Source of the DNA: an uncultured bacterium
Lineage (GTDB): Bacteria > Bacillota_I > Bacilli_A > RFN20 > CAG-826
Length of the DNA stretch: 64,000 bases
Assembly: GCA_949293175.1 (NCBI GenBank)
Contig: CASFCI010000002.1
Coordinates: 27,765 to 91,764 of the forward strand
Direction of reading: 5' to 3'
The notes beneath the pieces were generated by a model. It was not told where the DNA came from. It saw only the letters and a program-made list of their open reading frames with translations, and searched no databases. The position numbers were made by a program, and so were the translations under genes. Shown here piece by piece: positions 40,084 to 59,458 of this stretch; positions within the stretch are counted from its first letter, which is position 1, and every line of letters begins with the position of its first letter.

Positions 40084-41733
40084 ATGCCATTTTCCGTCAC
40101 CATCGGCAACAACACGACAACGTATCAGAAGAAGATGAGCCTGCTTGAGATACTAAACGGCTCCAACGAAGACAAATCGATCATCGCCGCCCGGGTCAAC
40201 AACCGGGTCAGGGAATTGACCTATGAGGTCAACTACGACTGCGAGATACAGTGGCTCACCGTCAAGGACGGCGACGCCACCAAGACCTACGAGGCGTCGC
40301 TGCGCTTCATCACCGCGATGGCCTTCCGCCGCGCCTACCCCGATCTGAAGATAAGGTTCGCCTACAACGTCTCCCGCTGCGTCTCGATCCACCTGCTCAC
40401 CCCGGGCTACACCGCCAACACGGCGATGCTGCTCAAGGTCAGCCACGAGATGGAGCGCATCATCGCCTCCGACTACCCCCTCAAGCGGATGGTCGTCCCC
40501 ATTGAGAAGGCCCGCGAGGTATATGAGCAGCTCGGCTACGAGGACAAGCTCGCCCTTTTGCCCTACCGCCCGGAGAAGACCGCCCACCTCTATGAGTGCG
40601 ACGGCTTCTACGACTACATGTACTCCCACATGGTCCCCTCGACCGGCTACATCAAGAAGTACAAGCTCCGCCTCTACGCGCCGAGCTTCCTATTGCAGTA
40701 CCCGCGCGCCGAGGCTGGCGGCGAGATCCCGCCCTTCCAGGACGCCCCGACCTTCGGCAGGGTCCTCAAGGAATCCCACGACTGGGCCAAGATCGTCGGC
40801 TCCGACACGGTCGCCGGCATCAACAAGTCCATCGAGCGCCGCGGGCCAATCGAGTTCATCAACCTCTGCGAGGCGCGCCACAACCGGATGCTTTGCGAGC
40901 TCGGACAGATGATCGAGGACTCCATCGACGAGGTGAGCCTGATCTGCATCGCCGGGCCCTCAAGCTCAGGCAAGACCACCTTCGCCAACCGCCTCCGCAT
41001 CGAATTGCTCGCCCGCGGAATCAACCCGATCCGCATCTCGATCGACGACTATTACCTCGAGAAGGACAAGATCCCGAAGGGGGAGAACGGGGAGATCGAC
41101 CTCGAGTCCATCGAGGCGCTCAACATCCCGCTTTTCAACCAGAACATGGTCGACCTCATCGCCGGGGAGACCGTCACATTGCCGAAGTTCGACTTCCAGT
41201 CCGGCAAGTCGGTCCCGGGCAGGACGCTCCACGTCGAGCGCGGCCAGCCCATCATCATCGAGGGCATCCACGCTCTCAACGACCGGATGACCGTCGACAT
41301 CCCGAAGTCGGCCAAGTTCAAGATCTTCATCGCCCCCCAGGCCCAGATCAACCTCGACGACCACACCCCGCTCTCGCTCACCGACCTGCGCCTCATCCGC
41401 CGGATCGTGCGCGACTACAAGTTCCGCAACGCCTCGGCCGAGGAGACCATCGGCATGTGGCCTAGCGTCCGGGCGGGCGAGTTCAAGTGGATCTACGACA
41501 CCCAGGAGGGCTCCGACTACGTCTACAACTCGATGCTCAGCTACGAGCTCCCGGTCATGAAGAAATACGCCTTGCCGCTGCTTAAGGGGATCGAGGAGAC
41601 ATCTCCATGCTTCCCCACCGCCATGCGGCTGGTGAGGATGCTCAAGTTCTTCGTCGACATGGACGACCAATGGGTACCATCGAACTCGCTGATGAGGGAA
41701 TTCATCGGCGGCTCGTGCTACGAGGACGTGTGA
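40084..41733 (+). CDS. Uridine/cytidine kinase-like P-loop kinase fused to an N-terminal TGS (ThrRS/GTPase/SpoT-like) domain
   Basis: GPSSSGKTTFANRL P-loop, the IIIEGIHAL motif and a beta-grasp-like N-terminus. Preceded by GGAGG. Confidence 0.6.
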   Translation: MPFSVTIGNNTTTYQKKMSLLEILNGSNEDKSIIAARVNNRVRELTYEVNYDCEIQWLTVKDGDATKTYEASLRFITAMAFRRAYPDLKIRFAYNVSRCVSIHLLTPGYTANTAMLLKVSHEMERIIASDYPLKRMVVPIEKAREVYEQLGYEDKLALLPYRPEKTAHLYECDGFYDYMYSHMVPSTGYIKKYKLRLYAPSFLLQYPRAEAGGEIPPFQDAPTFGRVLKESHDWAKIVGSDTVAGINKSIERRGPIEFINLCEARHNRMLCELGQMIEDSIDEVSLICIAGPSSSGKTTFANRLRIELLARGINPIRISIDDYYLEKDKIPKGENGEIDLESIEALNIPLFNQNMVDLIAGETVTLPKFDFQSGKSVPGRTLHVERGQPIIIEGIHALNDRMTVDIPKSAKFKIFIAPQAQINLDDHTPLSLTDLRLIRRIVRDYKFRNASAEETIGMWPSVRAGEFKWIYDTQEGSDYVYNSMLSYELPVMKKYALPLLKGIEETSPCFPTAMRLVRMLKFFVDMDDQWVPSNSLMREFIGGSCYEDV

Positions 41734-43332: not shown

Positions 43333-43344
43333 TTTCTTTCCTCC

Positions 43345-44604: not shown

Positions 44605-46100
44605 CCTTGGTAGCTCCCTAGATATAGATCGAAGGTGTCGAGGACGCCATCGAGGTTGTGGGCGGTGAGGTCGGTGGTCCCGAAGTCGGAGTAGGACACG
44701 GTGCTCACGCAGTCGCCGCCGAAGGCCTCGGAGGCGAAGTATAGCTTGAAGACCGGGTATCCCGCCTCATCGATGCTGACCTCAAGCCGGTCGAAGCCGA
44801 AGGCAAGGGTGGCCGTCGATTCGACGTACCAGCTGCTCATGCGGGTCGGGTAGTCGCCGACGCCGAAGACGGCGGCCATGATGTCGAAGCAGAAGTAGTG
44901 GTCGATGTACGGGAAATCGGCCAGATCGAACACGTAGCCCTCATCGGCCTTCTCGAAGAAGGCGGTCGAAAGCGACTGGATGAAGGGGACGGCTCCGTTG
45001 TCGACGGTGTAGGCGTCGGCCGATAGCGTCGCGGCGTAGCCAGTCCCGCCGTTGGTGCCCGGGGTCACGCCGATCTGGTAGTATCCGTCGGCCCCCGCCG
45101 CTTCCGCGGTGAAGTAGGCCAGTCCGGTGTAGGTCGTGCCATAGGAGGCATCGGTCAAGGGCAGGTCGGTGATCATGAGCTTGCGCCCGCCGAACTTGCC
45201 GGCCAGGTCGTAGTATGACTTGTACTCGCCGCGGTTATCGATCTCGGTCCCATCGACCAAGGTCGTCTTGACGTTGGTGGTGAAGTTCAGCCCCTGGACG
45301 CCATCGCGGAGCTTCTCGAAGGAAGCGGTGAGCGTGGAGAGGTCCTCCTCGCCAAGCGAGGGGGTATACGGGGTGAGCGGGGTCACCGCGTCGATGGCGG
45401 AGAGCTCGACGAGGTAGTCCTCGGCCATGTAGCCGTAGGCGTCGGCGAGGACGTTGGCGAACTTCGCCTGCTTCGGGGTGCCGTTGGCGTCAACGGTCAG
45501 TTCGAAGCCCTCGATCAGCTGACGCGAGGTGAGGTAGTCGAAGCTGTACGGGTTAATGGTATATAGGAATTTCGACATCCCCGGGGAGATGAGGGCGGTC
45601 AATAGCTCGGTCCCCTTCAGGGTGTAGCCATCCTCGGCGGTCTCCACGGTGAAGTAGCGCGAGAAGTTGGAGGCGGTTATGCCGGCGAGGGCCTTGTAGC
45701 CGGAATCGTAGTTGCCGGCGAAGGCGACCGGGAGGTTGGAGTCGTCGGTGACCTCGGTCGACTTGACGACGTTGTCGAGCCCAAGGGCGTTGAGCATGAC
45801 GTAGCCCTCGGGGGAGGAGGTGACGTCGGACTGCAATAGCGGCATCTTGGTGCCGGTGAGGCAGAGGTCGCTGTGCCTGGCGGTGGAGCTGACCTCATCG
45901 GTGGCGGTGAAGGTCGCGCCCCCGAAGGCGGCGTAGCGCGGGGTGATGGTCGCCACCGACTTGATCGGGGCGGCGAAGAAGGAGGCGATGCTGCTTATCT
46001 GCGCATCGGTCAGCCCCACTTCCTCGGCTGTCGCGCCGGTGGCGGAGCAGCCGCAAAGGGCGAGCCCGCAAAGGGCAATGGCGGAATTTATCTTCTTCAT
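44601..46100 (-). CDS. Lipoprotein, hypothetical
   Basis: Lipobox LALCGCS. ATGA overlap with the downstream gene. Confidence 0.5.
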   Translation of the reverse strand: MKKINSAIALCGLALCGCSATGATAEEVGLTDAQISSIASFFAAPIKSVATITPRYAAFGGATFTATDEVSSTARHSDLCLTGTKMPLLQSDVTSSPEGYVMLNALGLDNVVKSTEVTDDSNLPVAFAGNYDSGYKALAGITASNFSRYFTVETAEDGYTLKGTELLTALISPGMSKFLYTINPYSFDYLTSRQLIEGFELTVDANGTPKQAKFANVLADAYGYMAEDYLVELSAIDAVTPLTPYTPSLGEEDLSTLTASFEKLRDGVQGLNFTTNVKTTLVDGTEIDNRGEYKSYYDLAGKFGGRKLMITDLPLTDASYGTTYTGLAYFTAEAAGADGYYQIGVTPGTNGGTGYAATLSADAYTVDNGAVPFIQSLSTAFFEKADEGYVFDLADFPYIDHYFCFDIMAAVFGVGDYPTRMSSWYVESTATLAFGFDRLEVSIDEAGYPVFKLYFASEAFGGDCVSTVSYSDFGTTDLTAHNLDGVLDTFDLYLGSYQG

Positions 46101-47575
46101 CAGTTGGCCCTCCTTACGGTGATGGTGGCGCCTTCGCTATTGAGCGCGCCGACCTCGAAGGTCAGCCCGAGCTCAGGGCGGACGGCCCCATTGCCGTCGA
46201 AGTGGAAGTCGTGGTAGAAGCCATCGACCAGCGATTCCTCACCGAAGACGTCGCCCTCATGCCAGAGGTTGTCGTCGGTGATGTACATCGAGTTGGTCAT
46301 CTGGCGGTTGGCGCCGGTGCTGTCGAGCAGCTGGACGAGCGCGTAGTTGCCGGCGATGCCGTAGACCGCGTTGGTGTTGCGGCCGGAGTTGGTGTAGGCG
46401 AAGTCGTAGGCCAGGTCGGAGTTGAAATCCGGCTCGCCATAATATGGGTAGAACCCGTCTTCTCCGCCGGCGACTAGGCGGGAATCAACCTTGTAGACCC
46501 TGATGGCCGGCTCGGTCAAAGAGGAGCCGGAGTTAAGCCCGGTCGGGGTGAAGTAATCGATGAGCAGGTACTCGCCGAAGACGCCGGTGTCCTCGTTGGA
46601 GAGCAATAGGCTCTCGCCCGGGGCGAGGGTGTAGGTCGCCTCGGTTTCAAGCGAGGAGGCGATGATCTTGGTCGGCTCGGTCCATCCGAGCAGGTACTTG
46701 GTGAACGGGTTGTGGTCGGAGATGCCCTCCTCGGTGACGTCGGTGTAGCCAAGCGGGGCGCGGAGGTTGCCCTGCAGGTCGCCGGTCTGGTCGGAGTATT
46801 CCGGCACGCCGAGCAGGTCGGCGATGGCCTTGATGAAGCGGACGTTCATCGGGTCCTGGGTGCCGAAGCTGGCCCCGAGCGACCCGCACATCCACTCGGC
46901 GGCGTTGGCCTTCTCGGTCGAGACGAGCTGATCGTACATGAAGGAGGCGACCAGCTGGTCCATGGTCTCGTCGCCATAGGTCCAGGTGCCGTTATAGGCC
47001 GGGAAGGGGTTGGCGACGATGAGGTTGTCGATCTTCCCGTCGCCGTCGGAATCGTAGTCGGCGATGGAGTTCCCTTCCTCTACCCAGGCGTCGATCGCCT
47101 CATCCAATGTGGAGGCGATGACCGGGGAGGAGCCGGTGCTGTATAGGTTGTTGAGGAAGTCCTCGAAGCTGGTCGAGAGGGTGACCGGGGCCTCAACCGA
47201 GCCGGAGAGGTTGAGCTTGCCGCCGCTAGATTGCTGATAGTAGCTCAGGGCGGTGTAGCCAACGGGGCTCGACTCGAAGCCGGAGTCGAGGGCCAGTATG
47301 TCCGAGGCGGTAATCTTGAAGACGTCATCGCTGAAGCTGAAGGGGATGACCAATACCTTCTGGTCGCCCTCGCTTTCCATTGCCCCATTGCCCTGCGATT
47401 GGCGCAGCAGCGAAGCCGGCGATCCCTGCTTCTCTTCCTGGCTGGTGCCGGAGGAGTCGCTTCCCTCGCCATCCCCCAGGGACGAGGTCCCTGCGGGCTC
47501 GCAAGCGGCCAATAGGAGGGCGGATAGGGCCAGCGGGAAGATGGCCCGCGTTAACCTTTCCTTTTTCTTTGACAT
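46100..47575 (-). CDS. Lipoprotein, hypothetical. Its N-terminus is reminiscent of M6/InhA-like proteases but has no HExxH.
   Basis: Lipobox LLAACE, plus KVLVIPFSFSDD and a DYDSDGDGKIDN calcium-loop-like motif. Confidence 0.45.
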   Translation of the reverse strand: MSKKKERLTRAIFPLALSALLLAACEPAGTSSLGDGEGSDSSGTSQEEKQGSPASLLRQSQGNGAMESEGDQKVLVIPFSFSDDVFKITASDILALDSGFESSPVGYTALSYYQQSSGGKLNLSGSVEAPVTLSTSFEDFLNNLYSTGSSPVIASTLDEAIDAWVEEGNSIADYDSDGDGKIDNLIVANPFPAYNGTWTYGDETMDQLVASFMYDQLVSTEKANAAEWMCGSLGASFGTQDPMNVRFIKAIADLLGVPEYSDQTGDLQGNLRAPLGYTDVTEEGISDHNPFTKYLLGWTEPTKIIASSLETEATYTLAPGESLLLSNEDTGVFGEYLLIDYFTPTGLNSGSSLTEPAIRVYKVDSRLVAGGEDGFYPYYGEPDFNSDLAYDFAYTNSGRNTNAVYGIAGNYALVQLLDSTGANRQMTNSMYITDDNLWHEGDVFGEESLVDGFYHDFHFDGNGAVRPELGLTFEVGALNSEGATITVRRAN

Positions 47576-47652
47576 GTGTTTCTCCTGTTAGCTTTCTTCA
47601 AAAAAGCATAATAAAGATATAACAAAGCGAAAAAATGTGTATCCCCAAATTT

Positions 47653-47666
47653 TGTAAGCGCTTACA
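47653..47666. promoter_or_regulatory. cre-like perfect palindrome TGTAAGCGCTTACA in a divergent promoter region
   Basis: Matches TGWAANCGNTNWCA. It is flanked by A7 and T7 homopolymer runs. A -35-like TTGCAC lies 11 nt downstream. Confidence 0.45.
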
Positions 47667-47712
47667 CAAAAAAATCTTGCACTTTTTTTAAATTAATCTT
47701 TAATAGTCCTGC

Positions 47713-49350
47713 TTGAAAGGAACTAGCAAAATAATGAAAAACAAAGGAAAAATCCTGCTGGTAGCGGTCCTAGGCGGCGCCCTTATGTCGGGCTGCGGTG
47801 GGAACGTGTCCAGCAGCGAGTCCACCGACGGCGGAGGAACCGCTTCATCGACTGAATCTTCCACCGCCACATCGACCTCGGAAACCTCTTCCGAGGATTT
47901 GGCCGAGGAGCTTTCGGACTCGACCAAGCTAAAGGAGCGGCTGCTGCTTTCCGCCGACCGTATCGTCACCTCGCGCCGGCTCTCGATCGACCTCTCAGGG
48001 ACCATCTACGACGATGGGAAGACCGAGTCGGTCTCCTTGGCCACCGAGCATGAGGGCCTCCGCACCTACACCGAGACCCCAACCGGCGGGACAGCGCGCA
48101 CCTACGTCAGCTACGCCGGCATCCTCGGAAGCGACTACTACAGCGTCGATTCGGACACATACGGCTATTCTATTCGGTATAAAGTCGCCGAAGGCGGGAC
48201 CTACGATCAGGAAGGCGCCGACGGCACCATCGAGCTCGTGCACCAGGAGACCGGTTTGAAAGGCACCCTGGCCTACGACGAAGCCCTGCTCGGGATGAGG
48301 TTCCTCCAAGGAGGGGACGTCGAGGCGACAGACCCCTGCCTGCACGAGGTGGAGTACACCGTCACCGCCACCGATGGCGGCTACGAGGCGGTCTGGGAGT
48401 CCTACTACGAGAACACCGAGACCAGCTCCGAGTACTACTACAACGCCAACTTCCTCATCATCGCCTCCTTCGATGAAGAGCTCAACCTCCTGTCGCTGCA
48501 GTCCGACGTCACCGCCGCCTTCCCCAACGAGTGGGACGCCTCGATCCACGCGCCGCTACCCACCGCCACCCCGATACACCGCCTATATGAGCTAAGCGAC
48601 ATCGTCTACGCCGAATCCTACCCGGCGACCGATCCCGCCCACCCGATACTAGCCAACCTGAATGACTACTTCGTCAGCGAGGTCACCTCGGCCTCGCTGG
48701 TCAGCTGGAACGCCTCCGGCCCCGGCGGAGCCTTCCAGGTCGGCGACACCATCCAGCTCGACGACTCGAGCATCGAATACGCCCCCTCGACCGCGCTAAA
48801 CGCCAGCTATCTAACCATCACCGGTGCCTCTGAGGATGGGGTCCTGGTCGAAACCGAGAAGATGGGCATGACCGCCACCGTCTTCGGCAAGGCCGGCACC
48901 TTCGACCTATACATCGGCGACGAGGTCAGCCCGAGGCTCGGCACCATCACCGTCACCGTCTCCGAGGTCGACACCTCCGGCGGCTCCAACGTCTCCTCGA
49001 TCGATTGGACCGGATTCGAGAGTTCCGAGGATGCCACCTCGACCGAGACCAACCCGGTTTACAACGTCACCGTCCCCTTCAACTTCAACTGGAACCAGGC
49101 TTGGGTGCGCGTCGACGACGGGACCCAGGCGATGCTAGACAAGATAATCCCGTCCTTCACCGACTCCAACGTGATGATGGTCAACTTCACGGAGGATCCT
49201 TCCATGGCCTCGGCCGGATATGCCATCATGGAGTTCTACCCGCTCATGAACAACACCACCACTACCATGACCATCACCAACCCCGATCCCAGCCAGGCCT
49301 GGGGCGTCGAGACCATCACGGTCAACTTCACCGTCGTCCCCAACGCCTAA
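47713..49350 (+). CDS. Lipoprotein, hypothetical, Thr/Ser-rich
   Basis: MKNKGKILLVAVLGGALMSGCGG lipobox. Preceded by an AT-rich promoter region. Confidence 0.5.
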   Translation: MKGTSKIMKNKGKILLVAVLGGALMSGCGGNVSSSESTDGGGTASSTESSTATSTSETSSEDLAEELSDSTKLKERLLLSADRIVTSRRLSIDLSGTIYDDGKTESVSLATEHEGLRTYTETPTGGTARTYVSYAGILGSDYYSVDSDTYGYSIRYKVAEGGTYDQEGADGTIELVHQETGLKGTLAYDEALLGMRFLQGGDVEATDPCLHEVEYTVTATDGGYEAVWESYYENTETSSEYYYNANFLIIASFDEELNLLSLQSDVTAAFPNEWDASIHAPLPTATPIHRLYELSDIVYAESYPATDPAHPILANLNDYFVSEVTSASLVSWNASGPGGAFQVGDTIQLDDSSIEYAPSTALNASYLTITGASEDGVLVETEKMGMTATVFGKAGTFDLYIGDEVSPRLGTITVTVSEVDTSGGSNVSSIDWTGFESSEDATSTETNPVYNVTVPFNFNWNQAWVRVDDGTQAMLDKIIPSFTDSNVMMVNFTEDPSMASAGYAIMEFYPLMNNTTTTMTITNPDPSQAWGVETITVNFTVVPNA

Positions 49351-49370
49351 AGCGCGAAAGGCAAAACGAA

Positions 49371-49400
49371 AACCCAGGAGCGATCCTGGGTTTTATTGTT
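49371..49400. terminator. Bidirectional rho-independent terminator
   Basis: The hairpin CCCAGGA-GCGAT-CCTGGG is followed by TTTTATTGTT. It is also preceded by an A-rich run on the opposite strand. Confidence 0.55.
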
Positions 49401-50283
49401 GCCTTAGGAAGCTAAGCGCCTCATCAAGCCACCCCTCGGCTGAGGTCCCCTTGCCAATCCCCCATCCATGCCCATCTCCGGGATAGACGCGGTAGAGGTG
49501 CCTCACCCCGCGCGATGACAACGCCCTATCGAAGGCGTCGGAGTTTATCGGCGGCACGACGTCGTCGGTTTCGGCCCGCCAGAGGAAGGTCGGCGGGTAG
49601 CCCGGGTCGACGTGCCCCTCATCGGACAGGAAGCCGGATAGGTCGTCCCGCCCCCCGGTGAACCACCGCTTGCTCGGCTCATGGGTCGGGAGGGAGAAGC
49701 TTATCACCGGATAGCCGAGTATCAGGGCTTGCGGCCTGGGGTAATCGAAGGCCTCGGCCATGTCCTTGCGGCAAATCATCGCCGACAGGTGCCCTCCGGC
49801 GGAGAAGCCTAAAAGCAAAGTCGGCAGCTTGCCGGCCTCCCGGAGGCATTCCGCCACCTGGATGACCGGCTTGGGGAAGCAGGCGTCGCCCCGGATGCCG
49901 TACCCGGCGATGTAGACGGAATAGCCCGCCTCCTGCAGCGGCCTCACGAAATCGAACCCCTCGTTGACCGAGGCGATCATCTCATATCCCCCGCCGGGGA
50001 CCACCACGGCGTTGGCCTTCGGGTTGGCTATCGGGAAATGGAGATAGCCATACTCGGTCGATTCTCGGTAGGGATGGAAGCAGCCCGGGTTTTCCTCTAT
50101 AAGGGAAACCAGGCCGGAGAATGACGGGTAGCATTCGCCCAGGCAGAAATCGGTGGCCTCGCGCAGGGTGACGCTCGGCCGGGCCGCGTAATAGGCGTCC
50201 TCCAGCGGGAGCAGCATCTTCCTCGCCCCGCGGACGTCTTCGTTCTGGAAAAGGCGCAGGACCGGGGTCTTTTCAATTCCCAT
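49393..50283 (-). CDS. Alpha/beta hydrolase (esterase/lipase-like)
   Basis: GFSAGGHLS is a GxSxG motif, with a downstream Asp and His. The start MGIEKTP is preceded by AGGAG. It overlaps the upstream gene by 11 nt. Confidence 0.6.
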   Translation of the reverse strand: MGIEKTPVLRLFQNEDVRGARKMLLPLEDAYYAARPSVTLREATDFCLGECYPSFSGLVSLIEENPGCFHPYRESTEYGYLHFPIANPKANAVVVPGGGYEMIASVNEGFDFVRPLQEAGYSVYIAGYGIRGDACFPKPVIQVAECLREAGKLPTLLLGFSAGGHLSAMICRKDMAEAFDYPRPQALILGYPVISFSLPTHEPSKRWFTGGRDDLSGFLSDEGHVDPGYPPTFLWRAETDDVVPPINSDAFDRALSSRGVRHLYRVYPGDGHGWGIGKGTSAEGWLDEALSFLRQQ

Positions 50284-51403
50284 TGGCCTGCTCCTGCTTC
50301 TTCGAGGCTGTGGCGAATCGCTGCTTCTGCAGGCCATAGGCCTCAAGCAGCTGGTGGTAATAAAGCTTGCGCATCGTGACGTAGCGGTCCCGCTCCTGCT
50401 CGGAGACGGTCGACATGTAGAGGCTGGTGAACACCTTCTCCAGCCGGAAGAAGGACTCGTAAAGCGAAAGCAGGGTCAGCGAGAAGAAGTAGTTCTTGCT
50501 CGAGTAGATCAGAAGCGGCGAGGAATGGGCGATCTCCGAGCTCATCTCGTAGACCTTGGAGTAGGAGGAAAGCCCCGCCATCCGCTGGACACCATCGCGG
50601 AAGTTCAGCTTGAACCCATCCTGCTTCTCGACGCCCTCGATGGCGTAAAGCCAGCCGTATTCGATGAAGCGCTTCATGTCCTTGCTCTTGAGGTCGTGGC
50701 CTCTCATCTCGGACTTGATCTTGACGAACTCCTCGTCGGTCTCCTCCTTGGTCTTTAGCCCCCCGCGGAAGGCGAGGGCGTAGCGCATGTGGACCAGGTA
50801 GCGCTCGATTATCGGCTTGCCGTACTTGAGCAGGCAATGGAGGATGCACTCGTTCTCGTGCAGCGTCCTCCAGGTCGAGAAGGCCTCGGTCTCGAAGCCG
50901 TTCTCCAATAGCGAGGTGACGCATTTGGCCATCTGGAAGCCCTTGTTCATGACGTCGATGACCAAGGTCTGCTGGGGATCGTTCTTCTTGTAGCGCGAAA
51001 GCATCCCCAGGATGAAGTTCAGATAGAGGTCGAGGGTCGACATCATCGGCGAGAACCGGGAGGTCAAAGACCCCATCCGGTAGGCCAGATGCTCATTGGT
51101 GAAGTACTTGTCCAGCGACACCGAGGCGAGGAACCCGATGTACTCCTGATTTCCCTTAAGCGCCTCCATCTTGGTGTTGGCGTGGGTCGCGAGGTAGAAG
51201 GAGTGCTCCGAGCAGATGTAAAGCGTGAGGGAGGCGAAGTTGATGCCGAACCTCGATATTATCGGGCTCTCCTCGCGCAGCTCGGTGGTGGCATCGAGGG
51301 CCGCCTCAAAAGCCTCCTGGATCAATCCGTAGTCGAGCGAATCCGGGACCTTGAGGGCCGAAAGGAACGCCTGATAGTCTTTTATCGGGTTTTGAATCGC
51401 CAT
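50273..51403 (-). CDS. Hypothetical protein of 376 aa, predicted largely alpha-helical. It is co-transcribed downstream of addA.
   Basis: ORF with an 18-nt gap after addA. No motif was recognised. Confidence 0.4.
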   Translation of the reverse strand: MAIQNPIKDYQAFLSALKVPDSLDYGLIQEAFEAALDATTELREESPIISRFGINFASLTLYICSEHSFYLATHANTKMEALKGNQEYIGFLASVSLDKYFTNEHLAYRMGSLTSRFSPMMSTLDLYLNFILGMLSRYKKNDPQQTLVIDVMNKGFQMAKCVTSLLENGFETEAFSTWRTLHENECILHCLLKYGKPIIERYLVHMRYALAFRGGLKTKEETDEEFVKIKSEMRGHDLKSKDMKRFIEYGWLYAIEGVEKQDGFKLNFRDGVQRMAGLSSYSKVYEMSSEIAHSSPLLIYSSKNYFFSLTLLSLYESFFRLEKVFTSLYMSTVSEQERDRYVTMRKLYYHQLLEAYGLQKQRFATASKKQEQANGN

Positions 51404-51421
51404 AGGGGCATTTTACCCCCT

Positions 51422-54400
51422 TTATGAGACCTTTTTCACTACCCCGCGCTGCACCGAGAGCAGATAGGCCTCAACTTTCTTGCCGAAAATGCGCTCGATC
51501 GACTTCTTGTAGCCGAGCACTTGGGCGATGTAGGCCTCGTCGTCGAGGCTATAGGACTTGAAGTCGAACAGGTCGATATGGTCGGGGTAGGACAAGAACA
51601 TGTCCACCACGCCACAGTTGCCGTCTTGATCCTTGAAGCGGTATTCGTGGTATTCCTCCGCTTCGCTTGAGCAATCGAAGATGGGCAGGCGAAGCACGGT
51701 TTCTATCTTCCGCCTCATGGACTCGGATATCCCTTCCGCGGGGACCTTATGGGTGAAGCTGGTGAGCTCAAGCGCCTTGTGCAGATCGGTGCCGGAAAGC
51801 AAGGTGGCGAAGCCCTTCCCAGCCTGACCGCGGGAATAGGAAAGATGGGAATCAGATACCTTCATGTTGAGTTTGGGCGGCTTTCGGAAGAAACCCTTCG
51901 GCTCGATCCGCTTGGCCAGCGCGGCATCGGCTTCCCCCTTGGCCTTCGGGAAAGGTGGCAGGAAACCAAGCTTTGCCGACATCAGGTCGACGATGTCGGC
52001 ATCGGACTTGGCGAAGCGGGCTAAACCGGTATAGGGGCCTTTGCCATCCTTCGGCTTGGCCCTTACGAAGGTGAGCCGCTCCTTGGCCCTGGTTATGGCG
52101 ACGTAAAGGAGCCTTATCTTCTCCGAGATGGCCTTTTTCCTCTCTGTGTCCTCGGTCAGGGTCTGCAGGAACGTCGAGGAGCCGAAGGGTTTCGAGGGCA
52201 ATAGGCCGTATTCCTCGCAGGAGACGATCTTCGCCCCGCCGCCGCCTTTGGTGTAGCTCCGCTCGAGGTCGGCGAGATAGACGTAGGTAAACTCAAGGCC
52301 CTTCGAGGCGTGGACCGACATCCCCTTGACGCAGGGGAATAGCTTCTCCGAAGGCGATGAGACCTTTACCTTGGCCTCTGACTTGTCGGAGCGGCGAAGG
52401 AACTCGGCGAACTCGGAGAAGCCTTGCAATGAGGAGTCGAACGAGGAGGCGAGGCTCAATAGGAAGCTGAGGGCCTGCAGGTTCTCCCGGCGCTTTTCGA
52501 CGTAGGCGAGGTTATCGTAGAATCCAAGCTCGTCGAAGGCCTTCTGCAGCGCATCCTGGACCGGCAAACCCCGCAAAGCGGGCATTATCGATTCGATTTT
52601 GGCGACGATCGGAAGCGATTTCAGGTCGTTTTTGCGGGCTAGCTCGTGGATGGCCTCGTCATCGAAGTCGGGGCAGAGGTAGCTCCGCTGCAGTCCCAAG
52701 GCGCTACAGACGAAGGCGAATGATGACTCGTCGCCGCGGGCTAGGCAATCAAGCATCTCGACCAAGCTGCAGGCGGTGAGGAACGACTCCGTGCGGCTGG
52801 TGGAGCTATCGATGGTCGGGGAGAAGGGGATGTGCATCTTGGAGAACACCTTCATGATGACCGGCAGCGAGTTCTTCCGGCTGACCAATATGGCGAAGTC
52901 GGAGTAGTCGGCGTCCCTGATGACGGGCTCCCCGTCCTTGAAGAAGACGGCCTGGGTCTTGGAGGCGACGATGCTCTTTATGTCCTCCCCGATGGCGCGC
53001 GCCATCTCCTCGAATTGGTTCCCAATCTTTGGGTCGTACTCCATCAAGGCAAACCCATGGATTGGGGAAGAGGAGGCGTCGTAACCTTTCGCCCCGGGGT
53101 TGAGGGCTTGGCCATTGGAGTAGTCCACCCCGCCGAAGTCCTTGCTCATGAAGGAGGAGAACATGGCGTTAAGCCCATCGATTATCTGCCGTCTGGAGCG
53201 GAAGTTGTCGTCTAGCGAGATGAGCTTCCCCTTGCCATGCTCGCAATCCGCCATCATCGAGAGGAACAGGTCGGGGTTGGCGTTGCGGAAACGGTAAATC
53301 GACTGCTTGATGTCGCCGACGCAGAATAGGTTGTCGTTGGCGATCTGCCTAAGCAATTCCATCTGAAGGTTTGAGGTGTCCTGGAACTCGTCGACCATGA
53401 TGAAGCGGTATTTGTCCTGCAGCTGCTTCTTTACTTCGGGGAGGCTCGCGACCTTCCTCGCGAAATAGGCGATGTCGGAGAAGGTGAAGGCGGAGTTCTC
53501 CCGCTTGTAGGAGTCGACGCGATCATTGAGTTCCTTGGTGAGCTCAAGCACCGGGCGCATCAGCCTAAGCGCCTCAAGCTGCTGCTTGACGAGGTCCTCG
53601 TCGGAACCGGAAAGCATGGCGCAGGCCTGCTTGTACTCGGCGCTGACCACGGAGCGGATGGCCTTGTCCTCGGGGCTAAGCTCATTGGCGGTCGCCCGCC
53701 TTAATCCCTTCGAGAACCCGACCGACTCGCCCGGCTTTAGCGATTCATAGGTTTCCAAAACCTTCTGAATGTTTTCTACGTCGCGGTCGGAGGTAGAGGA
53801 GCCGTTCATGTTGGCGTATAGCGGCGCGAGGCTAAGGCAGTCGCGGAGCAGCGACTTCCCGTATTCGCGGTAGTCCTTGACCTTCGAAGCCACGAAGGCC
53901 TCGCTAAGATATTTTTCCCCGTAGGTTGATAGGAAGGCGTCCTTGTCGCCCGAAAGCTCGCCGAGGGAAAGCAATGCATTTACGTAGCGGTATAGGGTGT
54001 CGAAGCTGCTCCGGCAATAGATCGAGCAGAAGTCGCGGAATCCATCCGCCTCAGCGCCGAGGGCCTTCTTCGACCATCGCTCCACGAGCTCGTCGAATAT
54101 CCGTCGCTGCTCTGTCTTGAACAGGAACTCGTCCTGGATGGAGGGCGGCAAAGGCAGCCCCACATCCTCATAATGCTCCATGAGCAAGGAGTTGGCGAAG
54201 GAGTCGAAGGTGCAGATAGAGGCCTGCTCGACCTCATCGGCCATGGCCCGAACCTCGGGATGGGAAGAGGAGGCGATTTTGCGGCGGATGCGCTCCTTCA
54301 TCTCGGCGGCGGCCTTCTCGGTGAAGGTGAGCACCAAAAGCTGCTTGGGGGTGCAGTGCTTCCCCTCGACTAGGTGCAATGCCCGCTCGGAAAGGGTCTC

Positions 54401-54493
54401 GGTCTTCCCGCTGCCGGCCCCGGCGGAAACCAGGCAATTGCCATAGACGAAATCTATGGCTTCCTGCTGCTTGCTAGTCGGCTTCATCCTCAT
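51422..54493 (-). CDS. addA: ATP-dependent helicase/nuclease subunit A
   Basis: UvrD-like helicase motifs (AGAGSGKT, DEFQDTS) and the C-terminal RecB-family nuclease motif DLFDFKSY. Confidence 0.85.
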   Translation of the reverse strand: MRMKPTSKQQEAIDFVYGNCLVSAGAGSGKTETLSERALHLVEGKHCTPKQLLVLTFTEKAAAEMKERIRRKIASSSHPEVRAMADEVEQASICTFDSFANSLLMEHYEDVGLPLPPSIQDEFLFKTEQRRIFDELVERWSKKALGAEADGFRDFCSIYCRSSFDTLYRYVNALLSLGELSGDKDAFLSTYGEKYLSEAFVASKVKDYREYGKSLLRDCLSLAPLYANMNGSSTSDRDVENIQKVLETYESLKPGESVGFSKGLRRATANELSPEDKAIRSVVSAEYKQACAMLSGSDEDLVKQQLEALRLMRPVLELTKELNDRVDSYKRENSAFTFSDIAYFARKVASLPEVKKQLQDKYRFIMVDEFQDTSNLQMELLRQIANDNLFCVGDIKQSIYRFRNANPDLFLSMMADCEHGKGKLISLDDNFRSRRQIIDGLNAMFSSFMSKDFGGVDYSNGQALNPGAKGYDASSSPIHGFALMEYDPKIGNQFEEMARAIGEDIKSIVASKTQAVFFKDGEPVIRDADYSDFAILVSRKNSLPVIMKVFSKMHIPFSPTIDSSTSRTESFLTACSLVEMLDCLARGDESSFAFVCSALGLQRSYLCPDFDDEAIHELARKNDLKSLPIVAKIESIMPALRGLPVQDALQKAFDELGFYDNLAYVEKRRENLQALSFLLSLASSFDSSLQGFSEFAEFLRRSDKSEAKVKVSSPSEKLFPCVKGMSVHASKGLEFTYVYLADLERSYTKGGGGAKIVSCEEYGLLPSKPFGSSTFLQTLTEDTERKKAISEKIRLLYVAITRAKERLTFVRAKPKDGKGPYTGLARFAKSDADIVDLMSAKLGFLPPFPKAKGEADAALAKRIEPKGFFRKPPKLNMKVSDSHLSYSRGQAGKGFATLLSGTDLHKALELTSFTHKVPAEGISESMRRKIETVLRLPIFDCSSEAEEYHEYRFKDQDGNCGVVDMFLSYPDHIDLFDFKSYSLDDEAYIAQVLGYKKSIERIFGKKVEAYLLSVQRGVVKKVS

Positions 54494-56894
54494 CGTCCTC
54501 CTCGTATTCGAATTTCCCAATCTGCTCGTATGAGACGGCGCCGTCCTCGCCCTCGCGCTTCCTATAGTAGCGGGCGAAGTCCGGGTCGGCGTGGCAGATG
54601 GCGGAGAAGCTGCAGTATTTGCAGCCGTCATCCCCGTTTTTGACCTTGATAGGCGAGATCGGGAACTTCGATTCCTCTATGGCATCCATCTCCTGCTCCG
54701 CCTTTCCCTTGGCCTGCTCGATTATCCGCTTGAGGGATTCGGCGTCGAAGGCGCCTTTCACTTCGCCTTTGGCGGAGTGGCTTATTATCTCCAGGTCCGG
54801 ATCGAACTTCTCCAGCAACGAGGGATCGGCCTTAACGAACCCCTCCAGCGCGGCGGGGGAATCCGCTACCTCGGCGTGGTTCTCGATGTTGCATTTGATC
54901 GAGGCGATGAAGGCCCCATAGACCTCTTTGCCCAAGGTGGAGGAGGCCATGAGGCTATATAGCGGCAGCTGCATCGATAGGCCTAGCGGTATCTTGGGCA
55001 GCTCGAACCGGTGGTTCCAGCCGCTCGTCTTGTAGTCGACGACGAACACCTCATCGCCGACTTCGCCGACGAGGTCGCTCCGGCCATATAGCTTCCGCCC
55101 GCCCAGATCGGCCTGTAGCTCGATCTCGGGGCGCAGCTCGAAAAGACGGAGCCGCTTGGCGTAGTTGTCCGCGCTCACCCGCGCCTCCTCCTCGGTGAAG
55201 GAAAGCAGCAGCTGCTCCGAATAGGAGAACGACTCCCCGGCTTCCCCTATTATCCTCTCGGCCTCCTGCTTGCCAGATTTGAAGAAGGAGGTGTCGTAGC
55301 CATGACGGCCGATCTCCTCGAAGATCGCGTGGAAATAGGTCCCCTGCAAGGACGGGAAGGAATGGGAATCGTCGCGCAGCCCCAGGATGTACTGCAGATA
55401 GTACCTATATGGGCATTTTGCGTAGGTTTCCAGCGCGGAAAAGGATGCCTTAGATAGCTTTTCGGCCGCAAAGGCCCGGTTGTTTTTGTCAAACCGCGGA
55501 TCGTAAAGGGCAAAGCCCGGCAGCATCTCGGCCAAGGCGTCCTGCCGAGGCGATTTGCTTAGGAACTTCTTCTCCGACTCGAGGTCGTCGCCATACTCGA
55601 TGCGGGCGAACCCCTTGGAGTATTCGCAGTTTAGCGGCCCCTCGTCGTGGGCGATGGAAACGCGATGGGAGCGGGCTTTCTCCATCTCGTCGGCCAAAAG
55701 GAACGACTCGTGGCGCGGCCTATCGTCGGTCCCCTGCATGTAGAAGAAGGCGTCCTTGATGTATCCATGGCGCAACGCGGAAAGCAAATCGCAGGCGTCT
55801 AGGTGCCCCGCTTCCTGCGGGGTCATTAGCCCCGCGGCCTCGTAGTCTTCCTCTTCCAATAGGAATGGGTTGTCCGCCCCGGGCTTTGGGGCGTGGGAGC
55901 TGGAGAAGTCGAGCAAGATGCCATATTGGCCGCTCTCGCAGAAATAACCCCGCGCGACGTTGATGCCCTCTTCGTAAGTCACCCCGCCGGTCAATTTCTC
56001 CTTCAGGCAGAGGTAGCAGGCCTGCTTTATATCGCTTAGCTTGGAGTTAAGGCAAAGGGGCGACAGAGCCTCAAGGATCATATCGATCTTGTCGGACTCC
56101 GGGAATTCGCTCTTCAGCTTTTCCTCTAACGAAAGCAGCCCTTCCCTACCGGATAGAGAGCAAGCGGCGATGAACTTTAGCGCGGCCTTGCCTTCGTCTA
56201 GATAGGCTAGCGGAATCGAGGCTGGCAGATTTATCGGGAGGCCATATAGGCGCGAGATCTCGAGCAGGGCGCGGTGGTCGCCATCCTCGTAGTTGCATAG
56301 GCAGATGTCGCTCGGCTTGACTCCATGCTTGTCGATAAGATGGCAAAGCAGGTTGCCAAGGTAATGAAACCCCTCGATGTAGGTCGGGAAACGGTGCAGC
56401 GAATAGCCGAATGCCGCCTTGGGATCTTGAAGATCGTCCCCCAGCCCCTCGCCGAGGTCGAAGCCCATCGCGATGTTGGGGAGCTCTTTGACTAGGCTCG
56501 CCACCCGCTTCCCCGAGCCATAGCCGGCGATGATGATGTTCCTTCCCTTCAGCCTGGCCCCAGGCAGGAAGGGCTCATGGATGTAGCCTTCGCTTTTCAG
56601 CAGGTCGAACAATCGGCAGACCTCATTTAGGCTCTGCGCTTTCCTGGCCTTCTTCTCGTCCAATAAGGGGAGGCAATCAAGCAGGGCTTTCGCCTTTCTA
56701 TAGGATATTCCGTCGTCCAAAAGCCGCCCGATCGCGCTTGGGTCTATCCGGCGGGAAAACTCATCCTCCAGCGAGGATAGGTCGAATAGCTTGATGTCTA
56801 GGCCCGGCTGGCTCGCCATCATGTCGAGGTAGCGCCCCCAAAGGGCGCGCGGGGCGATGATGGCGGAGTTGGAATAGAGGGTGTCTTTTTGCAT
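54474..56894 (-). CDS. addB: ATP-dependent helicase/nuclease subunit B, short form (806 aa)
   Basis: The C-terminal nuclease domain has an Fe-S cysteine cluster (CPYRYY...DGCKYCSFSAICH) and DYKTS. It overlaps addA. There is no canonical N-terminal Walker A. Confidence 0.7.
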   Translation of the reverse strand: MQKDTLYSNSAIIAPRALWGRYLDMMASQPGLDIKLFDLSSLEDEFSRRIDPSAIGRLLDDGISYRKAKALLDCLPLLDEKKARKAQSLNEVCRLFDLLKSEGYIHEPFLPGARLKGRNIIIAGYGSGKRVASLVKELPNIAMGFDLGEGLGDDLQDPKAAFGYSLHRFPTYIEGFHYLGNLLCHLIDKHGVKPSDICLCNYEDGDHRALLEISRLYGLPINLPASIPLAYLDEGKAALKFIAACSLSGREGLLSLEEKLKSEFPESDKIDMILEALSPLCLNSKLSDIKQACYLCLKEKLTGGVTYEEGINVARGYFCESGQYGILLDFSSSHAPKPGADNPFLLEEEDYEAAGLMTPQEAGHLDACDLLSALRHGYIKDAFFYMQGTDDRPRHESFLLADEMEKARSHRVSIAHDEGPLNCEYSKGFARIEYGDDLESEKKFLSKSPRQDALAEMLPGFALYDPRFDKNNRAFAAEKLSKASFSALETYAKCPYRYYLQYILGLRDDSHSFPSLQGTYFHAIFEEIGRHGYDTSFFKSGKQEAERIIGEAGESFSYSEQLLLSFTEEEARVSADNYAKRLRLFELRPEIELQADLGGRKLYGRSDLVGEVGDEVFVVDYKTSGWNHRFELPKIPLGLSMQLPLYSLMASSTLGKEVYGAFIASIKCNIENHAEVADSPAALEGFVKADPSLLEKFDPDLEIISHSAKGEVKGAFDAESLKRIIEQAKGKAEQEMDAIEESKFPISPIKVKNGDDGCKYCSFSAICHADPDFARYYRKREGEDGAVSYEQIGKFEYEEDDEDEAD

Positions 56895-56978
56895 AGATTG
56901 ATTCTATACCCGCGCAGGGGGCCGACTCTAGAAGCGGCTGAAGAGAATACCGGACGGACATTGTGCTTTAATATTCTC

Positions 56979-57926
56979 ATGGCAAGGCAGAAGCGGACAT
57001 TGATCGAGATGATAACCTTAGAGGCCCACTCGCTTTTGCTGCGGATTGCCAAAAGGGCATCGGGCAGCGAATACGACGAGGAGCTCCGCGCGATCGCCAA
57101 GGCCATCGAGGGCGAGTCTGGCAAGCTGACCGACCTCGACCTCGCCGAGGCCTTGCTTTACTTCGGAAGGGCTTTGACTGCCCGGCCAGCCGATGAGGAT
57201 GGCTTCTACGAAGGCGCCGCCTCGATCGCCTACGCCTATCGCCTAAGCGAGGGGATGGCCGATAGGGAACATCAGAGGGAGCAATCGAAGATCCACGCGA
57301 TATGCGCCCTCCACCTTGGGTTTCTATCGCTATTCAAAAAGGATGGGGAGGAGCTGCTCTTCGGCGCCTCGCCCTACGCCAACATGGCGGTCAAATACGG
57401 GTTGGAGGCCGACATCGACCAAGGCCTGGCCTTCCTAGAGGAATGCCGCGGCGAAAGGATGCTGTGTAACGACGCCAACTCGCTGCTGGGACTATATTAC
57501 AGCCACCGCGGTGGCGAGCAATCCATCGCCAAAGACGACCTCAAGCGGGCGGTATACCATTTCATGCTGCTGAAGGCCCCGAGCCGGAAAAGGGAGGGGG
57601 CCTCCTGCTGCCGCTATATCCCGTTTTTCGCCTCCTCGCTGGCCTTCGAGGCCAAGCGGCTCATCGATTTCGGCTACCTGAAGCCGGGTTTTGCGCTGCT
57701 TTCGCACTCCCTCGATCTCGAGAAGGGGCTAAAAGACGAGCAGAGGAATCCCTATATACCATTCAATTTGGCGTTATGCTGCCTATATGGGGTCGGGACC
57801 CCGATCGACCGGGTCAAGGCCAACGAATACAAAAGCATCCTCGAGGGGCTTGCCGATAAGCTCCCCCTCGCCGAGAAGCTTTGCATCTCCCTTTCCAGGG
57901 CCGACTTCTCGTTGCCTAGGGCTTAG
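56979..57926 (+). CDS. Hypothetical protein with Sel1/TPR-like repeats
   Basis: Repeats such as ALCCLYGVGTPIDRVKANEY. The start is uncertain. The track ORF begins with TTG at 56889. Confidence 0.35.
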   Translation: MARQKRTLIEMITLEAHSLLLRIAKRASGSEYDEELRAIAKAIEGESGKLTDLDLAEALLYFGRALTARPADEDGFYEGAASIAYAYRLSEGMADREHQREQSKIHAICALHLGFLSLFKKDGEELLFGASPYANMAVKYGLEADIDQGLAFLEECRGERMLCNDANSLLGLYYSHRGGEQSIAKDDLKRAVYHFMLLKAPSRKREGASCCRYIPFFASSLAFEAKRLIDFGYLKPGFALLSHSLDLEKGLKDEQRNPYIPFNLALCCLYGVGTPIDRVKANEYKSILEGLADKLPLAEKLCISLSRADFSLPRA

Positions 57927-59398
57927 GGCTTGAAGGCCATCGCCGCCTTGACCGCGGATAGCCATCCGCCATATAGGCGGTCGGCCTCTTCTTTGTCCAT
58001 GCTTGGCTGGTAGCAGCGCCCCTTCCTGATGCACCGCTTGACGTCTTCCTTGCCTTTCATTATGCCCGCGCCGATCAATGCCATATAGCCCGCCCCGATG
58101 GCGGTGGTCTCCAGCTCGCATGGCAGGCAGACCGGGATGCCGAGTATATCGGATTGGAACTGCATCAATAGGCCGTTGGCCGAGGCGCCGCCATCGACTT
58201 TGAGCATCTTTAGCTCCAGCCCGGTGTCGCGCTTCATGGTCTCGATTACGTCCTTGGACTGGTAGGCGATTGAATATAGGCCCGCCCGGACGATGTTGTG
58301 TCGATCCGCCCCGCGGGTGAGCCCGAATATCGCGCCCCGGGCCTCGTCGTCCCACCATGGGGTGCCCAGCCCCACGAAGGCCGGGACGAAGTATATCCCG
58401 GCGGTGTCGGGCTTCCGCTTGGCGTATTCCTCGGATTCGGAGGAGCTATGGAACCACCTGGTCTGGTCGCGGAGCCACTGGACGATCGCCCCGCCTATGA
58501 ACACGGACCCCTCCAAGGCGTAGGTTGGCTTGCCGTTCTCGGTCCAGGCAATGGTGGTCAGCAACCCGTTTTTGCTCTCTATGGGTTTATCCCCGGTGTT
58601 CATGAGCATGAAGCAGCCGGTGCCGTAGGTGTTCTTCGAATCCCCCTCATCGAAGCAGCCCTGGCCGAAGAGCGAGGCCTGCTGGTCGCCGGCGACCCCG
58701 TAGATGTGGACGTGGCCGGGGAGGTAGCTCGCCTCGCCGAAGTCGGAGCAGTTGTCCTGCACCTTGGGCAGCATCGCCATCGGGATGTTCCATATATCGC
58801 ATAGCTCCTTGTCAAAGCGGAGGCTGTGGATGTCGAATAGCAAGGTGCGGCTCGCGTTGGAAGGGTCGGTGAGGTGGCTCTTCCCGCGGGTGAGCATGTA
58901 GATGAGGTAGGTGTCGATGGTGCCAAAGAGCAGCTCGCCCCGCTCCGCCCTTAGCTGCGCGCCTGGCACCGCGTCGAGGATGTAGCGCACCTTCGAGGCC
59001 GAGAAGTAAGGGTTCATCCTAAGGCCGGTCTTGGCCTTGATGAAGTCGCTTAGCCCCTGGCGCTCGTCGCACAGGGCCTGGGTCTGCTTGGATTGCCAGA
59101 CGATGGCGTTGTATATGGGCTTGCCGTCGCGCTCGAAGACGACCGCGGTCTCGCGCTGATTGGTTATCCCGATCCCGGCGACCTCGTCCATGCTGGCCAT
59201 CGAGACGACCAGCAGCTCGTTGATGACGTCGATGACCGAGATGAATATCCTCTCGGCGCTTTGCTCGACGTACCCCGGCTTGGGGAAGAGGCACTCGACC
59301 TCCCGCTGCGCCTTGTATAGCGGCTTGCCCTGCAGATCAAGCAGCAAAGCCCGGGTGGAGGTCGTCCCCTGATCGATCGAGATTATGTATTTCTTCAT
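57923..59398 (-). CDS. glpK: Glycerol kinase
   Basis: MKKYIISIDQGTTSTRALL. It conforms to the FGGY family throughout. Confidence 0.9.
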   Translation of the reverse strand: MKKYIISIDQGTTSTRALLLDLQGKPLYKAQREVECLFPKPGYVEQSAERIFISVIDVINELLVVSMASMDEVAGIGITNQRETAVVFERDGKPIYNAIVWQSKQTQALCDERQGLSDFIKAKTGLRMNPYFSASKVRYILDAVPGAQLRAERGELLFGTIDTYLIYMLTRGKSHLTDPSNASRTLLFDIHSLRFDKELCDIWNIPMAMLPKVQDNCSDFGEASYLPGHVHIYGVAGDQQASLFGQGCFDEGDSKNTYGTGCFMLMNTGDKPIESKNGLLTTIAWTENGKPTYALEGSVFIGGAIVQWLRDQTRWFHSSSESEEYAKRKPDTAGIYFVPAFVGLGTPWWDDEARGAIFGLTRGADRHNIVRAGLYSIAYQSKDVIETMKRDTGLELKMLKVDGGASANGLLMQFQSDILGIPVCLPCELETTAIGAGYMALIGAGIMKGKEDVKRCIRKGRCYQPSMDKEEADRLYGGWLSAVKAAMAFKP

Positions 59399-59410
59399 GC
59401 TTAGATAGTA

Positions 59411-59441
59411 AACGAAAAAAGGGATGGTGGCTAGCCATCCC
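59411..59441 (-). terminator. Rho-independent terminator between the permease gene and glpK
   Basis: On the minus strand, the hairpin GGGATGG-CTAGCCA-CCATCCC is followed by TTTTTTCGTTT. Its T-tract ends about 13 nt before the glpK ATG. Confidence 0.5.
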
Positions 59442-59458
59442 AATAGATAGTGGACAGT

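Follow-up and report, generated by a model that had tools for sequence, protein, structure and literature searches.

This analysis concerns a stretch of 64,000 nucleotides (nt), hereafter the window, from contig CASFCI010000002.1 of an uncultured bacterium, and within it a group of genes headed by addB and addA. By combining a map of open reading frames (ORFs) with direct reading of the sequence, we identified four co-directional genes on the minus strand, namely addB, addA, a gene for a protein of 376 amino acids (aa) that belongs to the Pfam family DUF5677, and a gene for a 296-aa hydrolase. It is improbable that the 376-aa protein serves as a helper of AddAB, and we regard the locus as a rather ordinary one, with an AddAB variant that lacks Walker A and a member of DUF5677, both of known kinds. 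The features of the locus are as follows.

54474..56894, minus strand: addB, 806 aa, a short AddB-type subunit with a C-terminal PD-(D/E)XK nuclease and a four-Cys Fe-S signature, without an N-terminal Walker A motif
51422..54493, minus strand: addA, 1023 aa from the ATG at 54493, a superfamily 1A (SF1A) UvrD-like helicase with a C-terminal RecB-type nuclease
50273..51403, minus strand: the DUF5677 gene, 376 aa, all-helical, part of the lineage core genome, invariant at W178-R179-x-x-H-E183-x-E185, G250-W251, Y285 and H293
49393..50283, minus strand: alpha/beta hydrolase gene, 296 aa, acetyl-esterase-like (BD-FAE / Peptidase_S9 C-terminal type)
49369..49394, no strand assigned: terminator-like hairpin with an A-run and a T-run on its sides, common to the convergent gene at 47713-49350

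A preliminary description of this DNA had reported addB and addA followed by two further, overlapping genes and, after the hydrolase, a bidirectional terminator; all four minus-strand ORFs and the terminator were confirmed. The end of addB overlaps the start of addA by 20 nt. The longest ORF for addA encodes 1069 aa; on L001, a near-identical contig, the gene was called with 1021 aa. Translation of addA stops at a TAA codon (51424-51422), and the ATG of the DUF5677 gene follows 18 nt further on. The DUF5677 gene is in turn overlapped by the hydrolase gene over 11 nt, and the gene calls on L001 agree with this. In the terminator scan, the hairpin showed a stem of 11 pairs followed by CGTTTTGCCT, with the T-run at 49394-49369 and the A-run before it. 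This hairpin is situated 19 nt past the convergent gene and serves both sides. The guanine-cytosine fraction was 0.56-0.60 over the operon versus 0.61-0.64 in the flanks, a mild difference. Horizontal transfer of the operon was considered and ruled out, given the mildness of this shift and the synteny of the site in all relatives.

AddA matched the Pfam families UvrD-helicase (E 2.1e-59) and UvrD_C (E 4.3e-20). The helicase motifs AGAGSGKT, DExQDTS, VGDxKQSIYrFRnA, NFRS, HaSKGLe and YVAxTRA were kept in 31 lineage homologs, making up a complete SF1A set that includes Walker A. Within the last ~130 residues, the elements G..lH, hEY, G..D, D.K (DLFDFKS in the window) and Q...Y were conserved among the 31 homologs and correspond to RecB-family nuclease motifs; the Pfam scan of AddA gave no PDDEXK_1 match. 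The best NCBIfam family was addA_Gpos, at 337.2 bits and under its equivalog cut-off of 707.65. AddB matched PDDEXK_1 over residues 483-768 (E 2.4e-30, 106.7 bits), and its nuclease motifs GrxD, DYKt and QLPxY were conserved in 20 lineage AddBs. Four cysteines, C494, C758, C761 and C767, form the C...CxxCx5C Fe-S signature and were kept in at least 90% of these AddBs. We found no GxxxxGK[ST] Walker A motif in the AddB N-terminus, where the sole Walker-like string, AGYGSGK at residue 123, was unconserved among the 20 sequences. The preliminary description was thus correct in assigning AddB a C-terminal Fe-S nuclease domain and no N-terminal Walker A. The best NCBIfam matches of AddB were weak (addB_Gpos, 43.8 bits against a cut-off of 903.7; rexB, 33.3 bits against 718.35).

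The same description had called AddB unusually short, a judgment that did not survive comparison with relatives: AddB measures 756-894 aa, and mostly under 810 aa, in every relative found. Short addB-addA pairs also occur in metagenomes of other lineages, such as one with a 790-aa AddB (L110), and the AddB of Helicobacter pylori is ~780 aa long. Like the Bacillus subtilis system, the window encodes a two-gene addB-addA unit, in which both subunits end in a RecB-type nuclease, AddA carries the full SF1A motor, and AddB has the four-Cys Fe-S signature. The two differ in subunit length, as B. subtilis AddA has 1232 aa and AddB 1166 aa, so that the window AddB is ~360 aa shorter; in the missing AddB Walker A; and in the genes that follow, since no sbcDC is present here. 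The addBA-sbcDC layout is a feature of B. subtilis and not a general rule, and the expectation that sbcCD should usually follow addA was accordingly dropped. The window AddB resembles other Walker A-less AddB enzymes in being short, in having no ATP-binding motif and in keeping its nuclease; the short addB-addA pairs of other lineages differ from it in sequence (~25-29% identity) and in that none is followed by a DUF5677 gene. Only a subset of AddB proteins possess Walker A (PMC3064778). The short AddB without Walker A is therefore a lineage-typical variant of an already known kind. Judged from its motifs, the window AddAB is a streamlined and intact AddAB-type helicase-nuclease, predicted to have AddA as a single motor with a nuclease and AddB as an Fe-S nuclease.

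The preliminary description had seen no recognizable motif in the 376-aa protein. We obtained a match to Pfam DUF5677 (PF18928) at 47.9 bits, against a gathering threshold of 27.1, covering residues 152-299 on model positions 8-155 of 166. The same family was matched by 31 of the 31 members of alignment A1 and by 38 of the 39 in alignment A2. A search of 5.8 billion proteins returned 1921 matches to the 376-aa protein. The best 120 of these were 57-99% identical, nearly all of ~346-397 aa, and were named only as proteins of "Bacilli bacterium" or Candidatus Enteromonas metagenome-assembled genomes (MAGs); the closest genome, with 94% identity, was that of Candidatus Alloenteromonas pullicola. 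When 1.84 billion representative proteins were scanned exhaustively with HMMER, only 283 clusters at 50% identity were obtained, in which most complete matches had 345-415 aa. The ~375-aa DUF5677 architecture is thus narrow. R179, E183, G250 and H293 were invariant in members down to 15% identity, and W178, E185, W251 and Y285 were nearly so, while the close subfamily has many additional invariant His, Glu and Asp residues. The window branch shares the invariant R/E/H residues with DUF5677 at large; it differs in an extra conserved N-terminal helical region of ~140 residues and in its setting, which is the core genome of a single lineage, where it is fixed, and not the prophage or defence islands that house distant members.

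To place the gene in its genomic context, we collected 80 species-level genome loci with 10-kb flanks, together with six from assemblies, and clustered their ORFs. A single backbone emerged, which runs from a ~2000-aa gene through c7, pepP, glpK, a variable position X and the DUF5677 gene to a PRK-family gene on the opposite strand, and then to c6-c5-c8-c9-c1-c11. The portion pepP-glpK-[X]-DUF5677-PRK(-) was kept in 83 loci. In most relatives, the PRK-family and DUF5677 genes converge. In the window, the anchors on the two sides are the following.

57923..59443, minus strand: glpK (glycerol kinase), the upstream synteny anchor (NCBIfam GlpK, 672 bits; synteny table)
40084..41733, plus strand: a 549-aa PRK-family gene (uridine kinase / phosphoribulokinase-like), the downstream synteny anchor (Pfam PRK, E 1.1e-14; its cluster occurs in 67 loci)

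Among the 78 genome loci informative for the upstream gene, addA lay directly upstream of the DUF5677 gene in 31, with gaps from -25 to +49 nt and most commonly 4 nt. In 4 more, addA was nearby with small inserted genes, which brings the loci where X is addB-addA to 35 of 78. A short ORF occupied the upstream position in 27 loci and glpK itself in 14, and 2 were otherwise. The addAB genes were consequently missing at this position in 41 of the 78 loci (27 with a remnant ORF and 14 with nothing). The MAGs DBKT01, UQFY01 and CAKUXV01 are examples of genomes in one or the other of these two states. The short ORFs, of 91-298 aa, matched only the N-terminal part of the lineage AddB profile (E 2.5e-54 to 3e-6). 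They cover approximately positions 4-197, with or without 294-371, of the 788 profile positions, and some carry an internal deletion. From this pattern of matches, they look like in-place addB remnants at differing stages of erosion. The remnant ORFs just upstream of the DUF5677 gene fall into three clusters.

Cluster c26: loci L019, L038, L040, L047, L054, L074, L075 and L078
Cluster c19: loci L050-L070
Cluster c30: loci L026-L033 and L052

A 219-aa gene upstream of the DUF5677 gene in L088 was also tested as an AddB remnant and proved not to be one. The Enteromonas loci (L085/L086 8097-9829; L010-L012, L017) have three small genes without Pfam matches (216, ~147 and 151 aa) between addA and the DUF5677 gene, breaking the tight coupling. 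Several loci with a block of the Bacilli type (L034-L036, L043, L051, L055, L061, L063, L065, L067, L068 and L070) come from bins labelled Parasutterella, Bacteroides uniformis, Escherichia coli, Faecalibacterium, Prevotella and others, and these labels probably reflect mislabelling or contamination in the source assemblies.

On a neighbor-joining tree of the DUF5677 proteins, the states with and without addAB were interleaved, which indicates several independent losses of addAB at this site. The DUF5677 protein did not change its constraint with this state. Its mean pairwise identity was 60% where addA lies upstream and 62% where it does not, and W178, R179, H182, E183, E185, H205, G250, W251, Y285, E286, E290 and H293 were invariant in both situations. 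In the same loci, identity to the window was 54-68% for DUF5677 and 59-75% for glpK, compared with 27-39% for AddA and 22-30% for AddB. DUF5677 therefore evolves far slower than AddA and AddB. By these comparisons it is a strongly conserved core gene, 54-68% identical throughout an order-level group of gut Bacilli MAGs.

The order addB-addA-DUF5677 was still present at 40% DUF5677 identity (L095). Relatives at 29-36% identity had no addAB and stood beside pepP, ATP synthase genes or a transfer RNA U5-methyltransferase gene. In a reciprocal test, metagenome contigs were scanned with the AddA profile, which gave 80 AddA-like loci, mostly generic UvrD-like helicases. Among them were seven short addB-addA pairs of other lineages, and no DUF5677 relative was found within 6 kb of any of these. 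Because the whole neighborhood keeps its gene order in this lineage, adjacency alone says little.

We consider it reasonably likely that the locus as a whole, in this relative of Candidatus Alloenteromonas pullicola from an uncultured gut Bacillota lineage, represents a string of chromosomal genes passed on by inheritance, with a core DUF5677 gene independent of AddAB, of HEPN-like type, next to an unrelated hydrolase. In the ancestor, the DUF5677 gene would probably have been the last gene of the addBA transcription unit. In many of the descendant lineages, addAB would then have decayed or been deleted precisely here, with DUF5677 retained. The function of DUF5677 appears to be independent of AddAB because the gene has been kept under undiminished constraint after repeated in-place loss of addAB, an argument that presupposes that those genomes do not carry addAB at a new location. 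What links the gene to addA is probably an old shared gene order, and probably co-transcription. As for its activity, DUF5677 may be a housekeeping enzyme or binding protein that acts on nucleic acid, most likely RNA. Such a HEPN-like bundle would use the invariant Arg179, Glu183 and His293, together with the nearly invariant Trp178, Glu185 and Tyr285. The family from which the window branch would stem has its other branches in prophage and defence islands.

The structural side of this reading derives from an AlphaFold model of the 376-aa protein, which is all-helical (pLDDT 86), as had been predicted. In the model, the helices of the core (approximately residues 140-330) form an up-down bundle with a HEPN-like shape; the resemblance is weak, and generic helical bundles score almost as well. 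Binding or cleavage of nucleic acid, probably RNA, by a HEPN-like DUF5677 bundle is suggested with low confidence. Foldseek and sequence-profile searches gave no HEPN match. Foldseek had also been proposed at the outset for detecting remote homologs of the protein, and against the PDB and BFVD it returned nothing below E 0.2. The profiles of A1 and A2 yielded only chance matches among solved structures (alpha-SNAP, E 0.015; FliG, E 8), and low-threshold Pfam scans of the 31 and 39 family members revealed no second family. There was no NCBIfam match for the 376-aa protein and no real match in PADLOC-DB, where the lone Cas8e match was spurious (E 0.0039, 13.9 bits). One unannotated PHROGs family, phrog_27456, matched it at E 1.3e-7. 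A search using the distant DUF5677 members alone retrieved 10 proteins and no domain fusions.

Several points weigh against the proposed history and activity. The loss of addAB was seen at this site only, and a second copy elsewhere in those genomes would matter. In loci that have addA, the two genes are coupled very tightly, by 4-nt gaps or overlaps, and this coupling is old, as expected of functionally linked genes, which leaves room for a facultative DUF5677-AddAB link. The canonical Rx4-6H motif of HEPN proteins such as AF0298/2hsb, the HEPN-MNT toxins and Csm6 is absent from the DUF5677 family alignment; the invariant R179 and H293 lie ~114 residues apart on different helices, and the stretch ahead of H293 reads [AS]-S-[EK]-x-x-H. 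The literature on DUF5677 / PF18928 offers no biochemical or genetic data for any member, its relevant items being a Salmonella machine-learning feature list and a serine-recombinase defence screen only. In that screen, a DUF5677 ORF tested for phage defence in Enterococcus faecalis was not one of the five active ORFs, which were reported to reduce plaquing (10.1101/2025.10.07.681051).

The preliminary description had linked the tight coupling of the 376-aa gene and addAB to a role as an AddAB accessory or modulator. The coupling itself was borne out, since homologs of the gene co-occur with addAB, directly downstream of addA in 31 of the 78 loci, most commonly at a 4-nt gap, and in the same order down to 40% identity. 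One could imagine an accessory subunit or modulator that handles Chi or controls RecA loading in place of the missing AddB part, and the lack of a Walker A motif in an AddB ~360 aa shorter than its B. subtilis counterpart would fit this idea. The role was not supported, however. DUF5677 is fully conserved in the 41 loci that show in-place erosion or deletion of addAB, it evolves at a rate far from those of AddA and AddB, and the seven short addB-addA pairs of other lineages have no relative of it nearby. Its 29-36%-identical relatives reside in unrelated housekeeping operons, and background synteny in the lineage is high. We regard an AddAB accessory as quite unlikely. The other early suggestion, a hitch-hiking phage-defence or anti-defence gene, such as an abortive-infection HEPN ribonuclease or a guard of AddAB, draws on the HEPN-like fold, the phrog_27456 match, the distant members in prophage or defence islands and the enrichment of the family near serine recombinases. 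It was set aside as highly improbable. The gene occupies the same chromosomal site in 80 or more species-level genomes and evolves slowly, with 54-68% identity to the window protein and a degree of conservation close to that of glpK. Patchy occurrence and neighboring mobility genes, which are typical of defence genes, are both absent, and it has no PADLOC match. The E. faecalis ORF, not one of the five reported as active, also speaks against this suggestion, and a guard of AddAB would not be expected to persist without AddAB at this site, as DUF5677 does.

The protein could also be a housekeeping helical bundle unrelated to nucleic acids, either a di-iron or hemerythrin-like metal enzyme or a scaffold or regulator, in which case its adjacency to addA would be pure synteny. 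The possible metal ligands H182, H205, E286 and E290 are mostly unconserved in the wider family, in which R179, E183 and H293 are invariant and E185 nearly so, and an invariant Arg suits phosphate or nucleic-acid chemistry better than a di-iron site. Neither observation is decisive, and we hold this explanation to be rather unlikely. With the inherited gene string as the preferred reading, a tempting but weakly founded candidate for a new AddAB accessory or defence gene is removed, and the adjacency becomes inherited order in a lineage with well-kept gene order. The strongly constrained core-genome branch, with its clear invariant R/E/H signature, offers a reasonable first target for the function of the family. 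In these gut Bacilli with reduced genomes, the AddAB break-resection genes appear to have been eroded here repeatedly and independently, with N-terminal remnants of AddB left behind. Total loss of recombinational repair in the remnant lineages would hinge on any second addAB copy elsewhere in the genome.

The most divergent DUF5677 members (20-24% identity) were found in mobile or conflict contexts. One adjoins an ADP-ribosyl-toxin-like gene, and another shares an island with genes for AbiTii, Viral_Rep, a Y1 transposase and an integrase. A 23%-identical member in GCA_031556235.1 (L177 7052-9868) is located at the end of a prophage tail module, between genes for an Nmad3-domain protein and an HNH protein, with type I restriction-modification methylase and specificity genes next to it; the site looks like a prophage-end hotspot for defence genes or morons. 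DUF5677 has likewise been reported as enriched beside serine recombinases in Bacillota defence contigs (bioRxiv 10.1101/2025.10.07.681051). These contexts point to an ancestry of the family in conflict systems. A more elaborate scenario, which we offer as speculation and consider fairly doubtful, is that the window branch was domesticated from this conflict-linked family as a slowly evolving core gene of a reduced-genome gut Bacilli order, in whose ancestor it shared a transcript with AddAB. On this view, the protein could be an RNA- or DNA-processing factor of the housekeeping type, so far unrecognized, through which break resection was once tied to some other process, and which became so indispensable that it has outlived AddAB.

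The hydrolase matched Pfam Peptidase_S9 (38.0 bits, cut-off 22.6) and BD-FAE (32.0 bits, cut-off 26.8), and the nucleophile motif GFSAGG (GxSxG) was read in its translation. Its best NCBIfam matches were the acetylxylan esterase AxeA1 and the lp_1002 arylesterase, all far under the equivalog cut-offs (66.7 vs 700). It resembles these BD-FAE acetyl-esterases in its Peptidase_S9 C-terminal and BD-FAE matches and in the GxSxG motif. The hydrolase gene adjoins the DUF5677 gene in the closest relatives only (L001, L003-L007). In Enteromonas, an rpiR-ROK-nagA-nagB cluster is inserted between the DUF5677 and PRK genes and ends with the hydrolase homolog, whereas the window hydrolase has no nagA/nagB neighbors. 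The hydrolase may have become a neighbor of DUF5677 when amino-sugar genes like those of Enteromonas were lost or never inserted here. Most simply, these matches suggest a carbohydrate acetyl-esterase unrelated to DNA repair.

On the far side of addB, a 345-aa ORF at 56889-57926 on the plus strand is divergent from addB and gave only a weak Sel1-repeat match (E 0.0022). Its counterpart was found in L001 and L003 only, and the other relatives have different small genes between glpK and addB. Between the hydrolase gene and the conserved PRK-family gene, positions 41881-49350 hold five successive genes without a Pfam match, four on the minus strand (483, 419, 499 and 491 aa) and one on the plus strand (545 aa). 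This block is likewise present in the closest relatives only (L001, L003-L007). All five products have N-terminal signal peptides, and four of them carry a lipoprotein-type Cys lipobox (LAAC, LCGC, LVAC and MSGC).

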